Positions 1 to 7,942 of a stretch of 7,942 bases of DNA are shown here, one piece after another. Positions within the stretch are counted from its first letter, which is position 1, and every line of letters begins with the position of its first letter. Both the position numbers and the translations under genes were made by a program. This DNA is from a virus (taxonomy: Duplodnaviria > Heunggongvirae > Uroviricota > Caudoviricetes): IMG/VR virus record IMGVR_UViG_2740892235_000013. The stretch is one strand, 5' to 3'. The notes beneath the pieces are model-generated. The model worked only from the letters and a program-made list of their open reading frames with translations. It had not been told where the DNA came from and did no database searches.

Positions 1-137
1 ATGCCGAGAATAATCGAATTACGCCAGCAGAAAACCGCCATTAAAAATCAGATGCGCGACATGCTGGAGAACGCGGAAAAAGAAAACCGCAGTCTTAACG
101 ATGCTGAGGGCGCAAAATTTGACGAATTACGCGCTAA
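1..137 (+). CDS. Orphan 5' fragment (45 codons) of a second major-capsid gene copy, truncated by the N run at 138-147
   Basis: Bases 1-137 match 538-674 (start of the capsid gene) with 2 substitutions: codon 2 ccg vs cag (Pro vs Gln) and cgc vs cgt (synonymous). Translation MPRIIELRQQKTAIKNQMRDMLENAEKENRSLNDAEGAKFDELRA. Followed directly by 10 N. Confidence 0.6.
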
Positions 138-147
138 NNNNNNNNNN
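138..147. other. Assembly gap (10 N); left and right flanks are not colinear
   Basis: Run of exactly 10 n. Left flank is a capsid 5' fragment, right flank is the 3' end of an unrelated ORF; unlike the other four gaps there is no tandem overlap across it. Confidence 0.9.
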
Positions 148-148
148 G

Positions 149-250
149 GATAACTTCGGAGACCTGAGAAAGGCAGTCGATCGCACTTATGCTGAAATGG
201 GTATGGATGGTGTAAGCGATGAAATATGGCGTAATTACACAGACAGCTAA
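149..250 (+). CDS. 3' terminal fragment (33 codons) of an unidentified upstream gene; 5' part lost in the gap
   Basis: Open frame from the gap edge, ...DNFGDLRKAVDRTYAEMGMDGVSDEIWRNYTDS, stop TAA 248-250, followed 6 nt later by a strong intrinsic terminator. A 33-codon open frame alone is weak evidence; the terminator placement supports it. Confidence 0.35.
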   Translation, partial: DNFGDLRKAVDRTYAEMGMDGVSDEIWRNYTDS

Positions 251-255
251 TCAAC

Positions 256-287
256 AGCCGGAGCAATCCGGCTTTTTGTTATTTTTT
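256..287 (+). terminator. Rho-independent terminator downstream of the upstream gene fragment
   Basis: Perfect 7-bp stem agccgga (256-262) / tccggct (267-273) with 4-nt loop gcaa, followed by a T-rich tract ttttgttatttttt. Confidence 0.7.
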
Positions 288-398
288 GTAAATTATTTGT
301 TCGTGGTTGTTCCACGTTGTTCACTGAGCGGATCGGCATATTTTACCCGAACTGAATCATGATTATTCTCGCCCGTGGTGCCAGGACGCTGGGGCCAC

Positions 399-446
399 TT
401 TCCCGCCTGTTAATGTGCCCGCCAATATTCATTACCAGGCGGGAAA
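399..446. promoter_or_regulatory. Perfect 11-bp inverted repeat with 26-nt spacer in the capsid leader; candidate operator or RNA structure
   Basis: tttcccgcctg (399-409) is the exact reverse complement of caggcgggaaa (436-446). It lies in a 287-bp non-coding leader (251-537) with no ORF on either strand. Confidence 0.3.
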
Positions 447-537
447 ACGATCGGTGCGATTGCTGATTTCCTTATGAAAAACGGTTGAGTGTTTGCCGCG
501 TCCTGGAGTTCCTTACTTAACCCCAGGACTTTTTTTT

Positions 538-1838
538 ATGCAGAGAATAATCGAATTACGCCAGCAGAAAACCGCCATTAAAAATCAGATGCGTGACATG
601 CTGGAGAACGCGGAAAAAGAAAACCGCAGTCTTAACGATGCTGAGGGCGCAAAATTTGACGAATTACGCGCTAAAGCTGAATCCCTCGATAAAGACATTT
701 CCCGCCTTGAAGCCATTGCAGACGAAGAGCGCAGCAAGCCAGGTAAAAGCAGTCAGACCACTGACCCCGCAGAACTACGAAACTACATTCTGACGGGTGA
801 AACCCGCGCATTAAGTACAGGCGTTCCCGCTGATGGTGGTTATACCGTTATCCCCGAGCTGAACACCGAAATCATGCGAATGCTGGCGGATGAGTCCACC
901 ATGCGCCGCATCTGTACCGTGAAGAAAATCAGCAGCAACGAGTTTAAGCAGCTTGTTTCCGCTGGCGGTGCGACCGTTAACCACGGTGAAGAGGGTAAGA
1001 CACGCGAACAGACCAGCACCCCGCAGATTAACGAGGTGAGCATTAAGCTGTATCCGGTCTATGCGTACCCGCGCACCACACAGGAAATCGTGGATTTTTC
1101 CGATGTGGACATCCTTTCATGGCTGACGGGTGAGATTGGCGACACCTTCACGGAAACCGAAGAAAGCGATCTGGTTGTGGGCGACGGTGACAAAAAAGCA
1201 AAAGGTTTTTTATCCGTACCCCGTGCAGAGAAGAACGACAAAGAGCGTGATTTTGGTTCGTTGCAGGTAATTAAACCTTCCGAATCTCTGGCGTGGACAT
1301 CTGCGGACCCGTTGATCGACCTGAAATTTGCATTACGTNNNNNNNNNNCTTTTTATCCGTACCCCGTGCAGAGAAGAACGACAAAGAGCGTGATTTTGGT
1401 ACGTTGCAGGTAATTAAACCTTCCGAATCTCTGGCGTGGACATCTGCGGACCCGTTGATCGACCTGAAATTTGCATTACGTAAAAAATACCGCAAAAACG
1501 CGGTCTGGGTGGTTAACTCCACGACGGCGGCAAAACTTCAGAAGGTGAAGAACGCGAACGGTGATTACATCTGGCGCGACCGTTTACAGGCGGGTGATCC
1601 TGATACGTTGCTGGGCCTTCCGGTCGAATATCTGGAGTTTATGCCTGATAACGTTATTGCCCTGGGTGACTTCAAACGCGGTTACTACATTGTTGATCAC
1701 GAAACAGGTGTTCGCACCAGACCGGACAACCTCACAGAGCCGGGCTTCATCAAAATTTTCACGCAGAAATATTTAGGCGGTGGCGTGGTGGATTCGAACG
1801 CGATCAAGATTCTGGAACTGCCACAGGACGACGATTAA
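538..1838 (+). CDS. Major capsid protein, HK97 fold (about 385 aa once the assembly duplication is collapsed)
   Basis: ATG 538 with AGGA 525-528 upstream; stop TAA 1836-1838. N-terminal coiled-coil delta-domain-like region (IIELRQQKTAIKNQMRDMLENAEKENRSLNDAEGAKFDELRAKAESLDKDISRLEAI), then HK97-capsid-like blocks (GGYTVIPEL, LVVGDGDKKAKGFL, YIWRDRLQAGDPDTLLGLPVEY, GDFKRGYYIVDHETG). The frame is broken only by the N run at 1339-1348 plus a 133-bp duplication (143 nt net, not a multiple of 3). Collapsed length is 1158 bp. Confidence 0.9.
1206..1481. repeat. Tandem near-identical overlap (1206-1338 and 1349-1481) around the 10-N gap at 1339-1348; assembly artefact inside the capsid gene
   Basis: The sequence right of the gap restarts 133 bp upstream of where the left copy ends. 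One substitution between copies (ggttcg vs ggtacg, Ser vs Thr). Confidence 0.85.
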
Positions 1839-1848
1839 CAGCATACAG

Positions 1849-1877
1849 AAGGGGCTTAAAAGCCCCTTTAGTGTTTT
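1849..1877 (+). terminator. Intrinsic terminator or attenuator immediately after the capsid gene
   Basis: 8-bp perfect stem aaggggct (1849-1856) / agcccctt (1861-1868), loop taaa, then tagtgtttt. The T tract is interrupted, so this may be a partial terminator. Confidence 0.6.
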
Positions 1878-1892
1878 ATGGGTGAAAAAATT

Positions 1893-2450
1893 ATGAAGAG
1901 TATGGAAATCCGGTCATCGGAAATCACCACCAGCGGAGCCGGTACGCTGACGGGCTACGTTGTTCGCTGGGATAAGCTTTCAGAACTGTTATGGGGTGAG
2001 TTTTACGAAAAATTCCAGCGGGGAGCGTTTACTGAATGGCTTGCAGCGGGTAATGACGTTCGCGGCCTGTATGAGCATGACCACAGCATGTTACTGGGGC
2101 GTACCCGTTCCGGCACGCTGAAACTGGAAGAGGACGAAACAGGGTTACGCTTTGAACTGACCCCACCGGATACCAGCACAGGGCGGGACGTTATCGAACT
2201 GGTTAAACGTGGTGATATATCCGGCATGAGCTTTGGCTTTCGTTCCCGTAAGGATGTATGGGATACCACAACAGAACCATGCGTGCGCACCGTGCTGGTG
2301 GCGGAACTGTACGAAATTACCGTTACATCCGTTCCGGCTTACCCTGATTCCGGCGTGGAGCTGGCCCGCCGTTCCCTGTATGAGCAGCACCCCGAAAAAA
2401 TGCCGCGTGCGGATAATCGCCGCTGGTGGGTGGATTTAGCGGGGGTGTGA
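1893..2450 (+). CDS. Prohead (head maturation) protease, HK97 family (peptidase S78-like)
   Basis: Family-typical His block (LYEHDHSMLLGRTRSGTL) and Ser block (DISGMSFGF). ATG 1893 has GGTGA 7 nt upstream; the in-frame ATG at 1878 has no RBS and sits inside the terminator T tract, so 1893 is preferred. Stop TGA 2448-2450. Confidence 0.88.
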   Translation: MKSMEIRSSEITTSGAGTLTGYVVRWDKLSELLWGEFYEKFQRGAFTEWLAAGNDVRGLYEHDHSMLLGRTRSGTLKLEEDETGLRFELTPPDTSTGRDVIELVKRGDISGMSFGFRSRKDVWDTTTEPCVRTVLVAELYEITVTSVPAYPDSGVELARRSLYEQHPEKMPRADNRRWWVDLAGV

Positions 2451-2451
2451 T

Positions 2452-3829
2452 ATGTGGCCTTTCAGAAGAAAAAAAGAGCAGCGCAGCATGACGCTTGATG
2501 AATTTATGGCGCTGGCTGGCACATCGAACACGGGGGCGGGTGAGTACGTATCATCGGGGACAGCGGAATCACTGCCCGCCGTCATGAACGCCGTCACGGT
2601 CATCTCTGAGGCGGTGGCTACCATGCCGTGTTACCTGTACCTGGTACGCAATGAGAAGGGGAAGGAGGCCCGCGAGTGGCTTGATTCTCATCCGGTCGAT
2701 CACATCCTCAACGAGCGCCCGAACGCATGGCAAACCCCCTACCAGTTTAAGCGAATGATGATCCGCCACTGCCTGTTAAACGGTAATGCTTATGCGGTGA
2801 TTCAGTGGGGGCGTGATGGTTTTCCGGTGGCTTTACATCCTTACCCGCCGCAGTCGGTGAACGTGGAGCAGACAGGTGAGCATAACTGGCGCTACTGCAT
2901 CACTGACGCCTACACCGGAAACACCCGCAACTATTTACCGTGGGAGGTTCTCCACCTTCGTTACTCCACGGATGACGGTTTTATGGGGCGCTCACCTGTA
3001 ACCATCTGCCGCGAATCGCTGGGGCTTGGGCTGGCCCAACAACGCCACGGCGCGAGCGTGATGCGTGATGGCATGATGGCGGCAGGGGTTATCACGTCAG
3101 GCGAATGGCTGGACGGCGTGAAGGGCAAACAGGCATTAGCCGCACTGGAACGCTACAAAGGGGCCAGAAACGCCGGAAAAACGCCCATCCTTGAAGGGGG
3201 TATGAGCTATCAGCAGCTGGGCATGAGTAATCAGGATGCTGAATGGCTGGCCTCCCGTCGCTTCACCATTGAAGACATCGCCCGAATGTTCAACGTCTCG
3301 CCGATTTTTTTNNNNNNNNNNTAAAGGGGCCAGAAACGCCGGAAAAACGCCCATCCTTGAAGGTGGCATGAGTTACCAGCAGCTGGGCATGAGTAACCAG
3401 GATGCTGAATGGCTGGCCTCCCGTCGCTTCACCATTGAAGACATCGCCCGAATGTTCAACGTCTCGCCGATTTTTTTGCAGGAATACAGCAACAGCACCT
3501 ACAGCAATTTCAGCGAGGCAAGCCGCGCATTTCTCACCATGACGATGCGCCCGTGGCTGGCGAACTTTGAGCAGCAGATAAAAAACGCCCTGCTGGTGGC
3601 CTCGCCTGTACCTGGTATCCGGTATCAGGTGGAGTTTGACAGCGCGGACCTGTTACGGGCCACACCTGGCGAACGCTTTGCCACCTATGAGCGCGGCATC
3701 AAATCCGGCGTTATGTGTCCGAACGAAGCCCGCGAACGTGAAGGACTGTCACCGCGTGATGGTGGTGATGAGTTCAGCCAGGCATGGAAACAGGAAGTAA
3801 AAATCAGCGAGGGAGAAAAACCGGAATGA
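2452..3829 (+). CDS. Portal protein, HK97 family (about 403 aa once the duplication is collapsed)
   Basis: ATG 2452 is 1 nt after the protease stop. Portal-like sequence throughout (RESLGLGLAQQ, GMSNQDAEWLASRRFTIEDIARMFNVSP, PWLANFEQQI). Frame broken only by the N run at 3312-3321 plus a 155-bp duplication (166 nt net). Stop TGA 3827-3829. Confidence 0.9.
3157..3477. repeat. Tandem near-identical overlap (3157-3311 and 3323-3477) around the 10-N gap at 3312-3321; assembly artefact inside the portal gene
   Basis: The copies differ at 5 positions, all synonymous third-codon changes (ggg/ggt, ggt/ggc, agc/agt, tat/tac, aat/aac). Confidence 0.85.
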
Positions 3830-4460
3830 ACATAGGGCGACTGCGTGACAGGGTAACGATTCAGACCCTGAAACAGACCAGGGATATAACCGGCGAAATA
3901 CTCGAAACGTGGGAGGACAGTCACACACTCTGGGCAAGCGTGAACATGGTCAGCAGCAAGGAGGCCATTTCATCGGGTGCAGAGCTGGCGATTGGTACCG
4001 TAAGGATCTGGATACGGTACCGGAAGGACATCAGCGCCACCAGCCGGATAAAGGTCAATACGGGGCCGCTGGCGGGGCGTGTACTGAATATCATCGGGCA
4101 GCCGCTGCCGGATGCCGCCAGGACACGCCTTGAAATTCNNNNNNNNNNATAACGATTCAGACCCTGAAACAGACCAGAGCCATGACGGGCGAAATACTCG
4201 AAACGTGGGAGGACGGTCACACACTCTGGGCAAGCGTGAACATGATCAGCAGCAAGGAGGCCATTTCATCGGGCGCAGAGCTGGCGATTGGTACCGTAAG
4301 GATCTGGATACGGTACCGGAAGGACATCAACGCCACCAGTCGGATAAAGGTCAGTACGGGGCCGCTGGCGGGGCGTGTACTGAATATCATCGGGCAGCCG
4401 CTGCCGGATGCCGCCAGGACACGCCTTGAAATTCTTTGTCGTGAGGGCGCGGAAAAATGA
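3826..4460 (+). CDS. Head-closure / head-tail joining protein (SPP1 gp16-like family), 112 aa once collapsed
   Basis: ATG 3826 overlaps the portal stop (ATGA). Family-like pattern LRDRVTIQ...GE..ETWED.HTLWASV...S.KEAISSGAELAIGTVRIWIRYRKDI. Frame interrupted by the N run at 4139-4148 plus a 286-bp duplication (296 nt net). Stop TGA 4458-4460. Confidence 0.8.
3854..4434. repeat. Tandem near-identical overlap (3854-4138 and 4150-4434) around the 10-N gap at 4139-4148; assembly artefact inside the head-closure gene
   Basis: About 10 substitutions between copies, including amino-acid changes (DI/AM, S/G, V/I, S/N, N/S) and synonymous changes. Confidence 0.85.
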
Positions 4461-4916
4461 CAGAAGAACTTATCACCCTGGAAGAAGTGAAACTCCATTG
4501 CCGCATCGATGGCGACGATGAAGACCAGTTAATCAGCGGATACATTGCCGCATCGCTTGAGGCGTGCCAGATACACATAGGCAGGCGCTTTGATGACGGG
4601 CTGGAGTTCACGCCAGCCATAAAGATTGGCTGCATGATGTTTATCGCTCACCTGTANNNNNNNNNNTATCGATGGCGACGAGGAAGACCAGTTAATCAGC
4701 GGATACATTGCCGCATCGCTTGAGGCGTGCCAGATACATATAGGCAGGCGCTTTGATGACGGGCTGGAGTTCACGCCAGCCATAAAGATTGGCTGCATGA
4801 TGTTTATCGCTCACCTGTATGAGAATCGCCAGATTGTCGCGGATAACGCAAAAACACGCGTACCCATGACGATTGGCGCACTCTGGACGGCTTACCGTGA
4901 TGTGGGGGTGTACTGA
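4457..4916 (+). CDS. gp6-like head-tail connector protein, 98 aa once collapsed
   Basis: ATG 4457 overlaps the upstream stop (ATGA). N-terminus MTEELITLEEVKLHCRIDGDDEDQLISGYIAASLEA is typical of gp6-like connectors. Frame interrupted by the N run at 4657-4666 plus a 152-bp duplication (163 nt net). Stop TGA 4914-4916. Confidence 0.75.
4505..4819. repeat. Tandem near-identical overlap (4505-4656 and 4668-4819) around the 10-N gap at 4657-4666; assembly artefact inside the connector gene
   Basis: Two substitutions between copies: gat/gag (Asp/Glu) and cac/cat (synonymous). Confidence 0.85.
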
Positions 4917-5356
4917 TGCCGTGGCAACCATTAAGACGATGCACAGAACCAGGCTGTAACAGGCGCGTTAAATCCGGCAAGTGTGAGGAGCACAGGCGGG
5001 CGGCATGGCGTGCAGAGGATGCCAGACGAGGACACCGCCGCGCGCGTGGATATTCCAGACAGTGGGACAAATACCGCGCCATGTATCTGAGTAAAAACCC
5101 GTTATGCGTGCGATGCCTTGAGAAGGGGATATATACGCCCGCCGTGGTGGTGGATCACATTATCCCGATTAATGGCGGTGATGATGTTCTCTTCTGGCCC
5201 GAATGGAACCATCAACCATTGTGCCAGGCGTGTCATAACCAGAAAACGAAATGGCTTGATCCGGCAACAAAAAGCAAGCGTGCCGCAGGTGGATTTCGTG
5301 AAGAGGAAGAACGGGCCGCTAACCGCAATAACTGGATGTATGACGCTGATGAATGA
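4916..5356 (+). CDS. HNH endonuclease (phage packaging-associated type), 146 aa
   Basis: ATG 4916 overlaps the connector stop (TGATG). Cys-rich N-terminus (CTEPGCNRRVKSGKCEEH) and HNH core (VVDHIIPINGG...NHQPLCQACHNQKT). Stop TGA 5354-5356. Confidence 0.9.
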   Translation: MPWQPLRRCTEPGCNRRVKSGKCEEHRRAAWRAEDARRGHRRARGYSRQWDKYRAMYLSKNPLCVRCLEKGIYTPAVVVDHIIPINGGDDVLFWPEWNHQPLCQACHNQKTKWLDPATKSKRAAGGFREEEERAANRNNWMYDADE

Positions 5357-5522
5357 GCGGGAGCAAAACCGCCTTATCCGTGGACTTATAAGGCAGCGTG
5401 ACGCATGGAAGACACAGGAAACAGGGCATAAAGATAAAGCGTCAGGACGCGCAGAACGCATCACAGCGAAGCGATTAACCGACCGTGACCGCGAGGTTAT
5501 GGAATGTTTCCGCAATCGCTGA
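5349..5522 (+). CDS. Small hypothetical protein (57 aa, Arg/Lys-rich)
   Basis: ATG 5349 overlaps the HNH stop by 8 nt (ATGAATGA). Translation MNEREQNRLIRGLIRQRDAWKTQETGHKDKASGRAERITAKRLTDRDREVMECFRNR. No clear RBS, so translation would have to be coupled. No recognisable family. Confidence 0.4.
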   Translation: MNEREQNRLIRGLIRQRDAWKTQETGHKDKASGRAERITAKRLTDRDREVMECFRNR

Positions 5523-5645
5523 TGAGGCTGTATGACGGGGTGGGGGGCGTTTTCAGGACCAACCCGACCCCGCCGGGCACCGAACGCCTCCTCAAATTTT
5601 TATGCACGGGAATTTTTTGAAAAATAATCTGGCGAAAAAATAAGC
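5523..5645. promoter_or_regulatory. Non-coding spacer upstream of terS; candidate cos/packaging-initiation region
   Basis: 123 bp with no ORF. G-run gacggggtggggggcgttttcagg followed by C-rich caacccgaccccgccgggcaccg, then an AT-rich tract (aaatttttatgcacgggaattttttgaaaaataat). Sits between HNH and terS, where cos lies in HK97-type phages. Confidence 0.35.
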
Positions 5646-6002
5646 ATGGCAAGACCACCGAAAGCCCCCGCCTACCTGGATGATATCGCCGTGAAGCAGT
5701 GGCGGGAAAAATCGCGGCAGCTTGCGGAACGGGGAGACCTGACCCCCGCCGACTGGAGCAATCTGGAACTGTATTGTGTCAACTACTCCATTTACCGGAA
5801 AGCCGTTGCAGACCTTGCGGCGCGCGGGTTCAGCATTGTTAACAGTCAGGGCGGCGAGAGCAGAAACCCCGCATTAAGCGCAAAATCCGACGCTGAAAGA
5901 GTGATGATAAAAATGGCCTCCTTGCTCGGTTTTGACCCGATAAGCCGCCGTAAAAATCCACCGGAAACAGAAGAAGAGGACGAGCTTGACCGCCTGGAAT
6001 AA
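5646..6002 (+). CDS. terS: Terminase small subunit, P27 family, 118 aa
   Basis: ATG 5646, stop TAA 6000-6002. P27-family-like pattern (LTPADWSNLELYCVNYSIYRKA...NPALSAKSDAERVMIKMASLLGFDPISRRK) with an acidic C-terminus. Confidence 0.85.
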   Translation: MARPPKAPAYLDDIAVKQWREKSRQLAERGDLTPADWSNLELYCVNYSIYRKAVADLAARGFSIVNSQGGESRNPALSAKSDAERVMIKMASLLGFDPISRRKNPPETEEEDELDRLE

Positions 6003-7647
6003 GTACGCAGAAGACGTAAAAACGGGCAAAATTCCGGCCTGTAAACGGCTGAAACAGGCCGTTAAACGGTACTTTTCGGACCTTGAAAGCCCCCTTTACA
6101 CGTTCGATCGTGAGGTTGTGGAGCGGTTTATTGCCTTTTCCAGGGTGTGCCCGCACGTAAAAGGGCCGATGCGTGGCAGACCCATTGAGCTGGAGCCGTG
6201 GCAGCAGTTCGCCTTTGCGTGCATCCTCGGCTTTAAGGTTAAGGCCACCGGACGGCGCAAATACACGAGCGCCTTTATCGAAGTGCCGCGCAAAAATGCG
6301 AAATCCACGACCGCCGCGATTCTGGCTAACTGGTTTCTGATTATGGAGAACGGGCAGCAGGATATTTACACCGCAGCGGTGAGCCGTGACCAGGCGCGGA
6401 TCGTTTTTGATGATGCGCGTCAGATGTGCCTTTTATCCCGACCGTTACGCAGGCGGGTGAATATTCAGGCCCACAAGGTGATGCACCCGAAAAGCAACAG
6501 CCTGTTAAAGCCGCTGGCAGCAAAAGCGGCAACCATCGAGGGAACAAACCCCAGCCTTTCCATCGTGGACGAATACCACCTACACCCCGATAACGGCGTT
6601 TATTCCGCGCTTGAGCTGGGGATGGGCGCACGTCCCGAAGGGCTGTTATTTGCCATTACCACATCGGGCAGTAACGTCGTTTCAGCCTGTAAACAGCACT
6701 ATGATTATTGCTGCCAGATCCTGGACGGCGAAGAGGTCAATGATTCAATTTTTGTGCTGATTTACGAGCTGGACGACGAAAACGAGGTTGATGATCCGGC
6801 GATGTGGATAAAGGCTAACCCTAACATCGATGTTTCCGTGGATCGTGAAAAACTGGCCTCAACCATCCAGAAAGCGCGGGGTATTCCGTCGCAATGGGTG
6901 GAGATGATGACAAAGCGATTTAATATCTGGTGCCAGGGGGCTACCCCGTGGATGGGTAACGGCGCATGGGCTGAGTGTGCCGGAACGTTCACGGAGGAAG
7001 ATTTACACGGGCAGGAGTGTTACGCGGGGCTGGACTTATCATCAACCAGCGATATTTCCAGCGTGTGCTATGCCTTTCCGGTCGGTAAAAATATCATGCT
7101 GGTTTCCCGTCATTATCTGCCGGAGTTCCAGCTACAGAACCCCGCCAATAAAAACCGCGCTGTCTATCGCCAGTGGGCTAAAGCGGGCTGGATACGCACA
7201 ACGCCAGGTGACTGCATTGATTACGACCGGATCAGAGATGACATCATGCAGGATGCGGAGAAATTTAATATCAGGCTGGTGGGCTTTGATACGTGGAACG
7301 CCACGCATCTCAGGACGCAATTACAGGGGGCTGGTTTTGAGGTGGAGCCGTTCCCGCAAACCTACCTCAGATTCAGTCCGGCGGCGAAATCGTTCGAAGT
7401 TTTTGTTAACCGCAGGGTGATTGTGCATCGTGGCGATCCGGTGTTGTCCTGGTCGATGAGTAACGTCGTGATGCAGAGTGACGCGAACGCCAATATCAAG
7501 CCGAACAAGAAAAAATCACCGAACAAGATAGACCCGAGCGTAGCGGCGCTGATGGCGTTTGGTACATTCCAGGCAGAGCATGAGGATTTTGCTTTTGATA
7601 TAAGCGACAGCCACCGCCAGAAACTGGAAGAATTTAGCGGGGTGTAA
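5986..7647 (+). CDS. terL: Terminase large subunit, 553 aa
   Basis: TTG 5986 is the only start codon in frame after the upstream stop at 5941-5943; it overlaps terS by 17 nt with a purine-rich stretch (gaagaagagga) upstream. N-terminal blocks typical of this terminase family (YAEDVKTGKIPACKRLKQAVKRY, HVKGPMRGRPIELEPWQQF), P-loop-like PRKNAKSTTAA, acidic nuclease-domain residues downstream. Stop TAA 7645-7647. Confidence 0.9.
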   Translation: MTAWNKYAEDVKTGKIPACKRLKQAVKRYFSDLESPLYTFDREVVERFIAFSRVCPHVKGPMRGRPIELEPWQQFAFACILGFKVKATGRRKYTSAFIEVPRKNAKSTTAAILANWFLIMENGQQDIYTAAVSRDQARIVFDDARQMCLLSRPLRRRVNIQAHKVMHPKSNSLLKPLAAKAATIEGTNPSLSIVDEYHLHPDNGVYSALELGMGARPEGLLFAITTSGSNVVSACKQHYDYCCQILDGEEVNDSIFVLIYELDDENEVDDPAMWIKANPNIDVSVDREKLASTIQKARGIPSQWVEMMTKRFNIWCQGATPWMGNGAWAECAGTFTEEDLHGQECYAGLDLSSTSDISSVCYAFPVGKNIMLVSRHYLPEFQLQNPANKNRAVYRQWAKAGWIRTTPGDCIDYDRIRDDIMQDAEKFNIRLVGFDTWNATHLRTQLQGAGFEVEPFPQTYLRFSPAAKSFEVFVNRRVIVHRGDPVLSWSMSNVVMQSDANANIKPNKKKSPNKIDPSVAALMAFGTFQAEHEDFAFDISDSHRQKLEEFSGV

Positions 7648-7660
7648 TGAGGTCAGCAGC

Positions 7661-7942
7661 ATGACAGAAGCCGAAATACTGCGATTAATCCGCCGCGTCT
7701 CTGGAATCAGCCAGCAGGCTGACGAACAGACCACGCAGCCGGACAGCGTGACAGCCGAAAATTATGCGCGTGTTGTTGCTGAGGTGATGCGCCGTGATGG
7801 TATCCAGCTTAATGATGCGGATATGCGCGACATACGGATCCGCGTTCTGGAAATGCTGGCCTACAATCGCCGCGTTGAACTGTATCGGGAGAAGGAGAAA
7901 ATCACGTATCACTGGAAGAAGCCGGAGCGGTTACGGCGGTAA
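7661..7942 (+). CDS. Hypothetical protein (93 aa) immediately downstream of terL
   Basis: ATG 7661 with GAGG 8 nt upstream; stop TAA 7940-7942 at the window edge. Translation MTEAEILRLIRRVSGISQQADEQTT...; no recognisable family. Occupies the position where a portal gene sits in canonical phages. Confidence 0.5.
   Translation: MTEAEILRLIRRVSGISQQADEQTTQPDSVTAENYARVVAEVMRRDGIQLNDADMRDIRIRVLEMLAYNRRVELYREKEKITYHWKKPERLRR

Follow-up and report, generated by a model that had tools for sequence, protein, structure and literature searches.

Tandem duplications in the packaging module of an E. coli cf-PICI record as the probable arms of unresolved assembly-graph bubbles

The breaks that run through four structural genes of this virus record are very probably artefacts of assembly, each join consisting of the two arms of an unresolved graph bubble between diverged copies of an island, written one after the other in tandem. 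The stretch analysed, a window of 7,942 nt, is letter-for-letter 141-8082 of NCBI contig CCQJ01000078.1 from the E. coli draft GCA_000753315.1. It is the opening 8 kb of a short-read draft scaffold and carries the capsid and packaging module of a capsid-forming PICI (cf-PICI) of the EcCIEDL933 type. The element is a member of a family already described and presents no biological novelty; the four genes are intact.

The joins and the genes they interrupt

Five runs of N, each exactly 10 nt long, stand as fixed-length placeholders between direct copies of the adjoining sequence (Table 1). These five pairs are the only direct repeats of at least 30 nt in the window, which excludes chance as their origin. 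The initial annotation had reported four joins, and all four proved correct to the base; the fifth, near the left end of the window, had been overlooked. The arm that precedes this fifth join reaches 140 nt beyond the left end of the window, to the first base of the source scaffold. At joins 1-4 the N runs are where they had been placed, the copies said to flank them at lengths of 133-286 nt measure 133, 156, 286 and 153 nt, and the net insertions are indeed 143, 166, 296 and 163 nt, none of them divisible by 3 (2, 1, 2 and 1 modulo 3). Deletion of one copy together with the Ns—either copy can be deleted—restores open frames of 385, 403, 112 and 98 aa, as had been proposed, and these lengths are family-typical, equal to those of the RefSeq CDSs that complete genomes carry (1158, 1212, 339 and 297 nt).

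Comparison with complete genomes bears out the further claim that the breaks are artefactual and the genes not pseudogenes: in the relatives examined the region is collinear, unduplicated, and has the four genes intact. Among complete genomes the best matches cover 7027 bp, corresponding to the window from 148 on less the duplicates and Ns. The four genes have the lengths given above in all seven of the loci fetched, and no tandem duplication of this kind was seen in the seven inspected. A match of ~7380 bp in MBT-5 and JNEC-KY202 was considered as a possible duplication and rejected, its length being due to a small additional gene that separates PerC from the capsid gene, and to no duplication in the four genes. 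A search with the junction pattern, in a form able to match N runs, gave no match among IMG/VR contigs or GTDB representative genomes; it was an exact look-up of a fragment protein that led to the source contig.

Table 1. Features of the window. Arms are assigned to lineage 1 (tqsA-type) or lineage 2 (phoQ-type).
Feature	Position	Strand	Remarks
Second copy of 538-674 (capsid start), tail of lineage-2 arm	1-137	+	100% identical to L004/L005; 2 differences vs 538-674
Fifth N10 gap	138-147	.	Exactly 10 N
Lineage-1 counterpart of first arm	148-674	+	Piece 148-1338 100% identical to L001/L002
PerC-family gene, 3' end	148-250	+	
Terminator-like hairpin, intergenic	256-273		Between PerC-family gene and capsid gene
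Major capsid gene (HK97 fold), split by join 1	538-1838	+	True 1158 nt, 385 aa; Pfam Phage_capsid
Bubble 1, lineage-1 arm	1206-1338	+	133 nt
N10, join 1	1339-1348	.	
Bubble 1, lineage-2 arm	1349-1481	+	133 nt; 2 differences
HK97-family prohead protease gene, unbroken	1878-2450	+	Pfam
Portal gene, split by join 2	2452-3829	+	True 1212 nt, 403 aa; Pfam Phage_portal
Bubble 2, lineage-1 arm	3156-3311	+	156 nt
N10, join 2	3312-3321	.	
Bubble 2, lineage-2 arm	3322-3477	+	156 nt; 6 differences
Head-closure (head-tail adaptor) gene, split by join 3	3826-4460	+	True 339 nt, 112 aa; Pfam Phage_HCP
Bubble 3, lineage-2 arm	3853-4138	+	286 nt
N10, join 3	4139-4148	.	
Bubble 3, lineage-1 arm	4149-4434	+	286 nt; 12 differences
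gp6-like head-tail connector gene, split by join 4	4457-4916	+	True 297 nt, 98 aa; Pfam Phage_connect_1
Bubble 4, lineage-1 arm	4504-4656	+	153 nt
N10, join 4	4657-4666	.	
Bubble 4, lineage-2 arm	4667-4819	+	153 nt; 3 differences
Remaining packaging module, no breaks	4916-7942	+	
HNH endonuclease	4916-5356	+	Pfam
Hypothetical protein	5340-5522	+	60 aa
terS (P27 family)	5646-6002	+	Pfam
terL	5986-7647	+	Pfam
Hypothetical protein	7661-7942	+	93 aa

Alleles and boundaries of the paired copies

The two copies at a join are not identical. The pairs at joins 1-4 differ at 2 of 133, 6 of 156, 12 of 286 and 3 of 153 positions, the first base being counted; paired-copy divergence is 1.5-4.2%, with lineage-specific alleles throughout. 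Reference islands of two lineages served for comparison: L001 and L002 represent lineage 1, the tqsA type, and L004 and L005 lineage 2, the phoQ-adjacent type. All 25 of the 25 paired-copy differences fall at sites where L001/L002 differ from L004, and at 22 of these they differ from L005 as well. At every one of the five joins, one copy carries purely L001-type alleles and its partner purely L004-type alleles. The pieces between joins can be typed in the same way: 148-1338 and 4149-4656 are 100% L001-type, whereas 3322-4138 shows 97.9% identity to L001 and 99.5% to L004. The effect on the proteins varies from bubble to bubble. Bubble 1 comprises a first-base SNP and a second difference, the latter replacing S with T at capsid residue 241; the six differences in the portal gene (bubble 2) are all synonymous; the twelve of bubble 3 produce seven amino-acid changes in the 112-aa head-closure protein; and one of the three in bubble 4 changes a residue, D to E at connector position 21.

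The boundaries of the copies are as regular as their allele content. At joins 1-4 the copies open on the first differing base (offset 0), and at all five joins they run for exactly 80 bases after the last difference, which in the first arm lies at position 57; neighbouring differences within copies are never more than 57 nt apart. When k was scanned from 31 to 127, k=81 alone yielded haplotype-specific de Bruijn unitigs identical to the duplicated segments, eight of eight. Likewise, when the L001-vs-L004 SNPs are clustered at k=81, the predicted arms measure 133, 156, 286 and 153 nt and fall precisely where arms are seen. The unresolved arms are all longer than 100 nt, and isolated SNPs, whose arms would be of 81 nt, are each represented by one allele in the collapsed sequence, the origin of these alleles being mixed.

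It is on this point that the initial annotation has to be corrected, for it had taken the copies to be unmerged overlaps of one DNA. That explanation supposes that adjacent contigs of a single locus overlap by 133-286 nt, the differences being errors made at the ends of contigs in sequencing or assembly. Artefacts of this type are common, the duplicates do adjoin N runs, and deletion of one copy does repair each reading frame; but random errors would not reproduce natural lineage alleles at 25 of 25 sites, phased copy by copy. Nor would they cause right copies to open on a differing base and left copies to end 80 nt after the last difference, in keeping with the k=81 rule, or lineage identity to alternate from piece to piece. 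We judge it highly improbable. Still less credible, to the point of being negligible, is the proposal that the island is decaying, four of its structural genes having been inactivated by genuine tandem duplications, and that the Ns hide short unsequenced stretches. It has in its favour the literal text of the record and nothing further. Against it, none of the five gaps departs from a length of 10 nt, one k-mer rule accounts for the duplicated segments, the junctions consist of N placeholders and have no equivalent in the seven complete-genome loci, and the paired copies come from different lineages, where a fresh duplication would give identical ones.

The reference islands are close to the sources of the two allele sets without being those sources. 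Five more clusters of L001-vs-L004 SNPs that predict arms of over 100 nt (at 2828-2979 and 6693-6768, for example) have no corresponding duplication in the window, which means that L001 and L004 are not the exact source copies; at these five places either the true sources were identical or the bubbles were resolved in another way. Phased reconstructions led to the same rejection of L001 and L004 as exact source haplotypes: 17 and 11 mismatches to them persist, every one within a collapsed segment.

A route from two island copies to one scaffold

The two allele sets suggest that two copies of the module were present in the sample. They would differ by ~1-4% in patches, one resembling the tqsA-integrated islands and the other those adjacent to phoQ. 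In a de Bruijn graph built at k=81, identical stretches of both copies would collapse into single nodes, and each cluster of close differences would open a two-armed bubble. Above a length of ~100 nt the arms would be left unmerged, and a scaffolder that saw both of them joined to the same neighbours would output arm A, followed by the minimum gap of 10 N and by arm B. If arms were written without their leading k-1 bases, they would start on the first variant base and end 80 nt past the final one. Insertions of 143-296 nt would result, and these would disrupt the reading frames on paper only.

Velvet has a 10-N minimum gap and a default max_branch_length of 100, and its node descriptors omit the first k-1 bases. 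The assembler may thus have been Velvet or a Velvet-like program, an identification that is not secure because the first piece of the scaffold likewise opens on a variant base, whereas a Velvet contig would be expected to have an extra k-1 prefix. Our literature search yielded nothing usable on the 10-N minimum gap, on Velvet's bubble-length default or on accession CCQJ01. A k of 81 is plausible for 100-bp reads, given that the Sanger pipeline ran Velvet at k = 66-90% of read length (PMC5320598).

The alleles most likely come from two islands in one genome. One complete genome, RM10809-3, has an island at tqsA and another beside phoQ, and some single genomes have up to 5-6 matching places. The same graph artefact could arise if the alleles came from a mixed culture, or from a contaminating second E. 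coli strain with a related island: paralogues and mixtures give identical bubbles, and the sequence by itself cannot tell them apart. A second strain at appreciable depth is nevertheless expected to make bubbles in core genes too; the N runs in the first 14.6 kb of CCQJ01000078.1 are confined to the island, with no N joins in the 6.5 kb of yejO/narP chromosomal flank that follows it, though this flank is short. Several such islands per single complete genome are, moreover, documented. A strain mixture is in our estimation unlikely.

Relation to known islands and use of the record

The usual phage order is terS-terL-portal-protease-capsid. An HK97-like phage head module shares all its Pfam families with the window, in which the order is instead capsid-protease-portal-...-terS-terL on one strand, with no tail genes; this arrangement fits a satellite rather than a prophage. 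A Pfam match was obtained for all eight cf-PICI packaging products—capsid, protease, portal, head-tail adaptor, connector, HNH, TerS and TerL—and these eight are included among the core components of cf-PICIs (PMC10085698). A near-identical island in the complete genome NZ_AP024921 has integrase, HTH regulator and RepA helicase genes, and none for tail, lysis or holin functions. The gene set and order are those of EcCIEDL933-type cf-PICIs, from which we find no biological difference; what differs here is that the record is corrupted and that the left half of the island lies outside this scaffold. Over its full length the capsid protein matches the 385-aa chain of PDB 9gyi at ~99% identity, with 3 substitutions, and it contains S93-x-G-x-x-A-D, a maturation motif reported for EcCIEDL933, whose helper-dependent transfer with hijacked tails is known (bioRxiv 10.1101/2025.02.11.637232). 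An Rfam search gave no matches, and promoter and terminator scans remained at background level except for two clear hairpins.

False duplications produced by de Bruijn assembly from heterozygosity or paralogues have the features seen here, with both alleles side by side, a placeholder gap and boundaries set by k, and likewise cause spurious frameshifts and split gene calls. Their usual setting is the assembly of diploid eukaryotes; here it is a bacterial draft in which satellite islands (or strains) act as the haplotypes. Reassembly with overlap merging, as had been suggested, would not repair such joins, and if one copy is simply deleted, what is left is a chimera of both islands, a consensus that corresponds to no single real molecule. 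Bad scaffolds of this kind can be recognised by a precise signature: a run of 10 N, a variant at the first base of the copy, and k-1 bases after the last variant.

Head-closure/adaptor and connector proteins are reported to set tail compatibility, and the arms differ notably in these, at 7 of 112 head-closure/adaptor residues and one connector residue. It is conceivable, though we hold it with considerable doubt, that a pair of EcCIEDL933-type cf-PICIs is co-resident in the isolate, their packaging modules sharing long identical stretches and differing in patches. In that case the helper tails used might vary from one island to the other, given these differences in proteins tied to tail compatibility, and the islands might exchange segments by recombination.

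The practical value of the analysis is as a data-quality flag. Records of this kind would mislead screens for pseudogenised or "decaying" satellites, as well as typing of adaptor and connector alleles, and the artefact is already leaking into databases: gene calls on the contig turn the four genes into eight fragments, and a 92-aa head-closure fragment is already present in NCBI nr as WP_052078673.1.

Duplicated segments at the assembly joins

The 7942-nt window is interrupted by five N runs, each exactly ten bases long, and its only direct repeats of at least 30 nt are the five pairs of segments associated with them. The initial annotation had listed the N runs, duplicate flanks, net insertions and restored reading-frame lengths of joins 1-4, and every one of these numbers was reproduced; it had overlooked the run at 138-147 (the fifth join), which is of the same kind. 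None of the net insertions at joins 1-4 is a multiple of three, and dropping either copy together with the Ns leaves an open frame.

Joins in the window, in order of position. Lineage 1, tqsA-type; lineage 2, phoQ-adjacent type. Differences include the first base of the copies. Source calls are the gene calls on CCQJ01000078.1.
Join	N run	Left copy	Right copy	Copy (nt)	Net insertion (nt)	Differences	Lineage, left/right	Last difference / end of left copy	Repaired ORF (Pfam)	Repaired length (aa)	Finished genomes (nt)	Source calls (aa)
Fifth	138-147	1-137	538-674			2	2/1	57 / 137				
1	1339-1348	1206-1338	1349-1481	133	143	2	1/2	1258 / 1338	Phage_capsid	385	1158	291 + 162
2	3312-3321	3156-3311	3322-3477	156	166	6	1/2	3231 / 3311	Phage_portal	403	1212	278 + 168
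3	4139-4148	3853-4138	4149-4434	286	296	12	2/1	4058 / 4138	Phage_HCP (head completion/closure)	112	339	108 + 92
4	4657-4666	4504-4656	4667-4819	153	163	3	1/2	4576 / 4656	Phage_connect_1	98	297	88 + 82

Of 5426 complete E. coli genomes, 1305 give a match to the whole window; the top matches show 99.5% identity over 7027 bp of chromosome, precisely what is left of positions 148-7942 when the four duplicates and N runs are subtracted. With the reading frames restored and full-length CDSs annotated in finished genomes, the proposal that the frameshifts are false products of scaffolding and the genes intact is borne out. Length differences among the complete-genome matches result from an extra 225-nt hypothetical gene between the PerC and capsid genes of some relatives (L009 428-652; L004 768-992), which the tqsA-type island lacks.

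The source scaffold, CCQJ01000078.1 (68,632 bp; NCBI assembly GCA_000753315.1), was identified through an exact search with the 92-aa fragment that 4182-4460 encodes; the window lies in it verbatim at 141-8082. The five N runs are the only ones in its first 14.6 kb, and all are within the island; over that distance the flanking chromosome (yejO, narP, ccm genes) is free of them. NCBI nr lists the truncated 92-aa head-closure fragment as WP_052078673.1. In two other drafts (GCA_039854045.1 and GCA_048002365.1), short contigs begin with the 92-aa ORF or no more than 3 nt away from it, which suggests that this multi-copy island disrupts further short-read assemblies here.

Allelic origin of the paired copies

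We checked the 25 positions at which paired copies differ against five islands taken as references from complete genomes, L001 and L002 (tqsA-type) and L003-L005 (beside phoQ). L001 and L002 differ from L004 at all 25, and at each join one copy carries L001-type alleles only, the other L004-type only. The pieces between N runs alternate in lineage in step with the copies: 148-1338 and 4149-4656 are 100% identical to L001, while 3322-4138 has 99.5% identity to L004 against 97.9% to L001. Random contig-end errors cannot yield such a lineage-pure, alternating pattern.

The segment boundaries obey a single k-mer rule. At joins 1-4 the duplicated segment opens on a differing base, the spacing of successive differences does not exceed 57 nt, and at all five joins the left copy ends exactly 80 bases after the last difference. 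Such boundaries are those of a haplotype-specific unitig of a k=81 de Bruijn graph, written as the last base of each k-mer. When two phased sequences were built and haplotype-specific unitigs extracted for k = 31 to 127, k=81 alone reproduced the duplicated segments exactly (8/8, as against 0/8 at every other k). Independent clustering of the L001-L004 differences at k=81 predicted arms, the alternative paths of a graph bubble, of 133, 156, 286 and 153 nt, each exactly where it is observed, and the 69 nt between bubbles 3 and 4 (4435-4503) equal the 150-nt nearest-variant distance minus 81. The flanks, initially read as overlaps of one locus, are thus two alleles of unresolved bubbles; overlap merging would therefore not repair the record, and de-duplication gives a chimeric consensus.

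The sample very probably contained two diverged copies of the module, whose identical stretches collapsed and whose clusters of differences became bubbles; those with arms of 133-286 nt stayed unmerged, and the scaffolder then wrote the two arms one behind the other, divided by a minimal gap. At isolated SNPs, for which 81-nt arms are expected, the collapsed parts of the window carry single alleles of mixed lineage, as bubble-popping would produce. Because of this mixing, the 5426 complete genomes contain no perfect match to pieces 1349-3311, 3322-4138 or 4667-7942, and the phased reconstructions still differ from L001 at 17 positions and from L004 at 11. Three features of Velvet fit the pattern, namely a minimum gap of 10 N, a bubble branch length limited to 100 by default and node descriptors lacking the first k-1 bases; a literature search found no citable paper for them. 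In the Sanger bacterial pipeline, k for Velvet was set to 66-90% of read length (PMC5320598); by that standard, k=81 is nothing unusual with 100-bp reads. The fit is less neat at the scaffold's very first piece, which also opens on a variant base where a k-1 prefix would be expected.

That piece, the first arm of the fifth join, reaches back 140 nt beyond the window, to base 1 of the scaffold; within the window the lineage-2 copy of this join (1-137) encodes MPRII..., the lineage-1 copy (538-674, capsid start) MQRII.... The most divergent patch of the module is 3853-4434, where 7 of the 112 residues of the head-closure/adaptor protein vary between the alleles (V10I, D20A, I21M, S32G, V42I, S69N, N77S), unlike the portal copies, whose six differences are all synonymous. 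Tail compatibility of cf-PICIs is reportedly set by adaptor and connector (10.1101/2025.02.11.637232).

The island and its copies

The underlying element is a known capsid-forming PICI (cf-PICI), without new biology. Neighbouring genes encode a prohead protease (Peptidase_S78), HNH endonuclease, P27-family TerS (Terminase_4) and TerL. From 538 to 7647 capsid, protease, portal, adaptor, connector, HNH, terS and terL lie on one strand throughout, and the seven complete-genome relatives inspected all share the capsid-to-terL order, the reverse of what is usual in HK97-type phages. In strain 12E115 the module belongs to a ~15.5-kb island inserted in tqsA, with integrase, HTH regulator, RepA helicase, SSB and PerC but no tail or lysis genes, the layout of a cf-PICI (PMC10085698). 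Compared end to end with the 385-aa chain of PDB 9gyi, which we infer to be the EcCIEDL933 capsid, the repaired capsid shows ~99% identity; it also has the S93-x-G-x-x-A-D motif described for that prototype (bioRxiv 10.1101/2025.02.11.637232). Strong terminator-like hairpins with T runs behind them lie just past the PerC-family gene (256-273) and just past the capsid gene, ahead of the protease gene (1848-1869); terminator-like sites in the window overall are no more numerous than in shuffles.

The two copies are probably paralogous islands of one genome. A mixture of two strains is an unlikely source: the single complete genome of RM10809-3 has one island in tqsA and one beside phoQ, some complete genomes have up to 5-6 matching places, and the chromosomal flank is without bubbles.

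At the right end the scaffold (L006 in its own coordinates) is identical to the cf-PICI reference L004 up to 8650, and from 8021 on to the island at yejO in strain 154 (L012); L004 and L012 thus have 630 identical nt in common. This yejO junction occurs in three complete genomes, and the island resident there is in no case a cf-PICI: its capsid is a different one accompanied by a head-decoration gene, or is fused to ClpP. The scaffold may therefore pass through a repeat that leads from a cf-PICI into the flank of a different island; alternatively, a modular cf-PICI may reside at yejO in the source. The right-end module (L006 7801-8723; window 7661-7942 and 780 nt beyond), which includes the last, 93-aa gene, is common to other PICI types. 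Just beyond the window, the non-coding right end of the island contains a 40-nt imperfect direct repeat (92.5% identity; L006 8128-8167 and 8311-8350, 183 nt apart), which is visible in several reference islands from secondary BLAST alignments.
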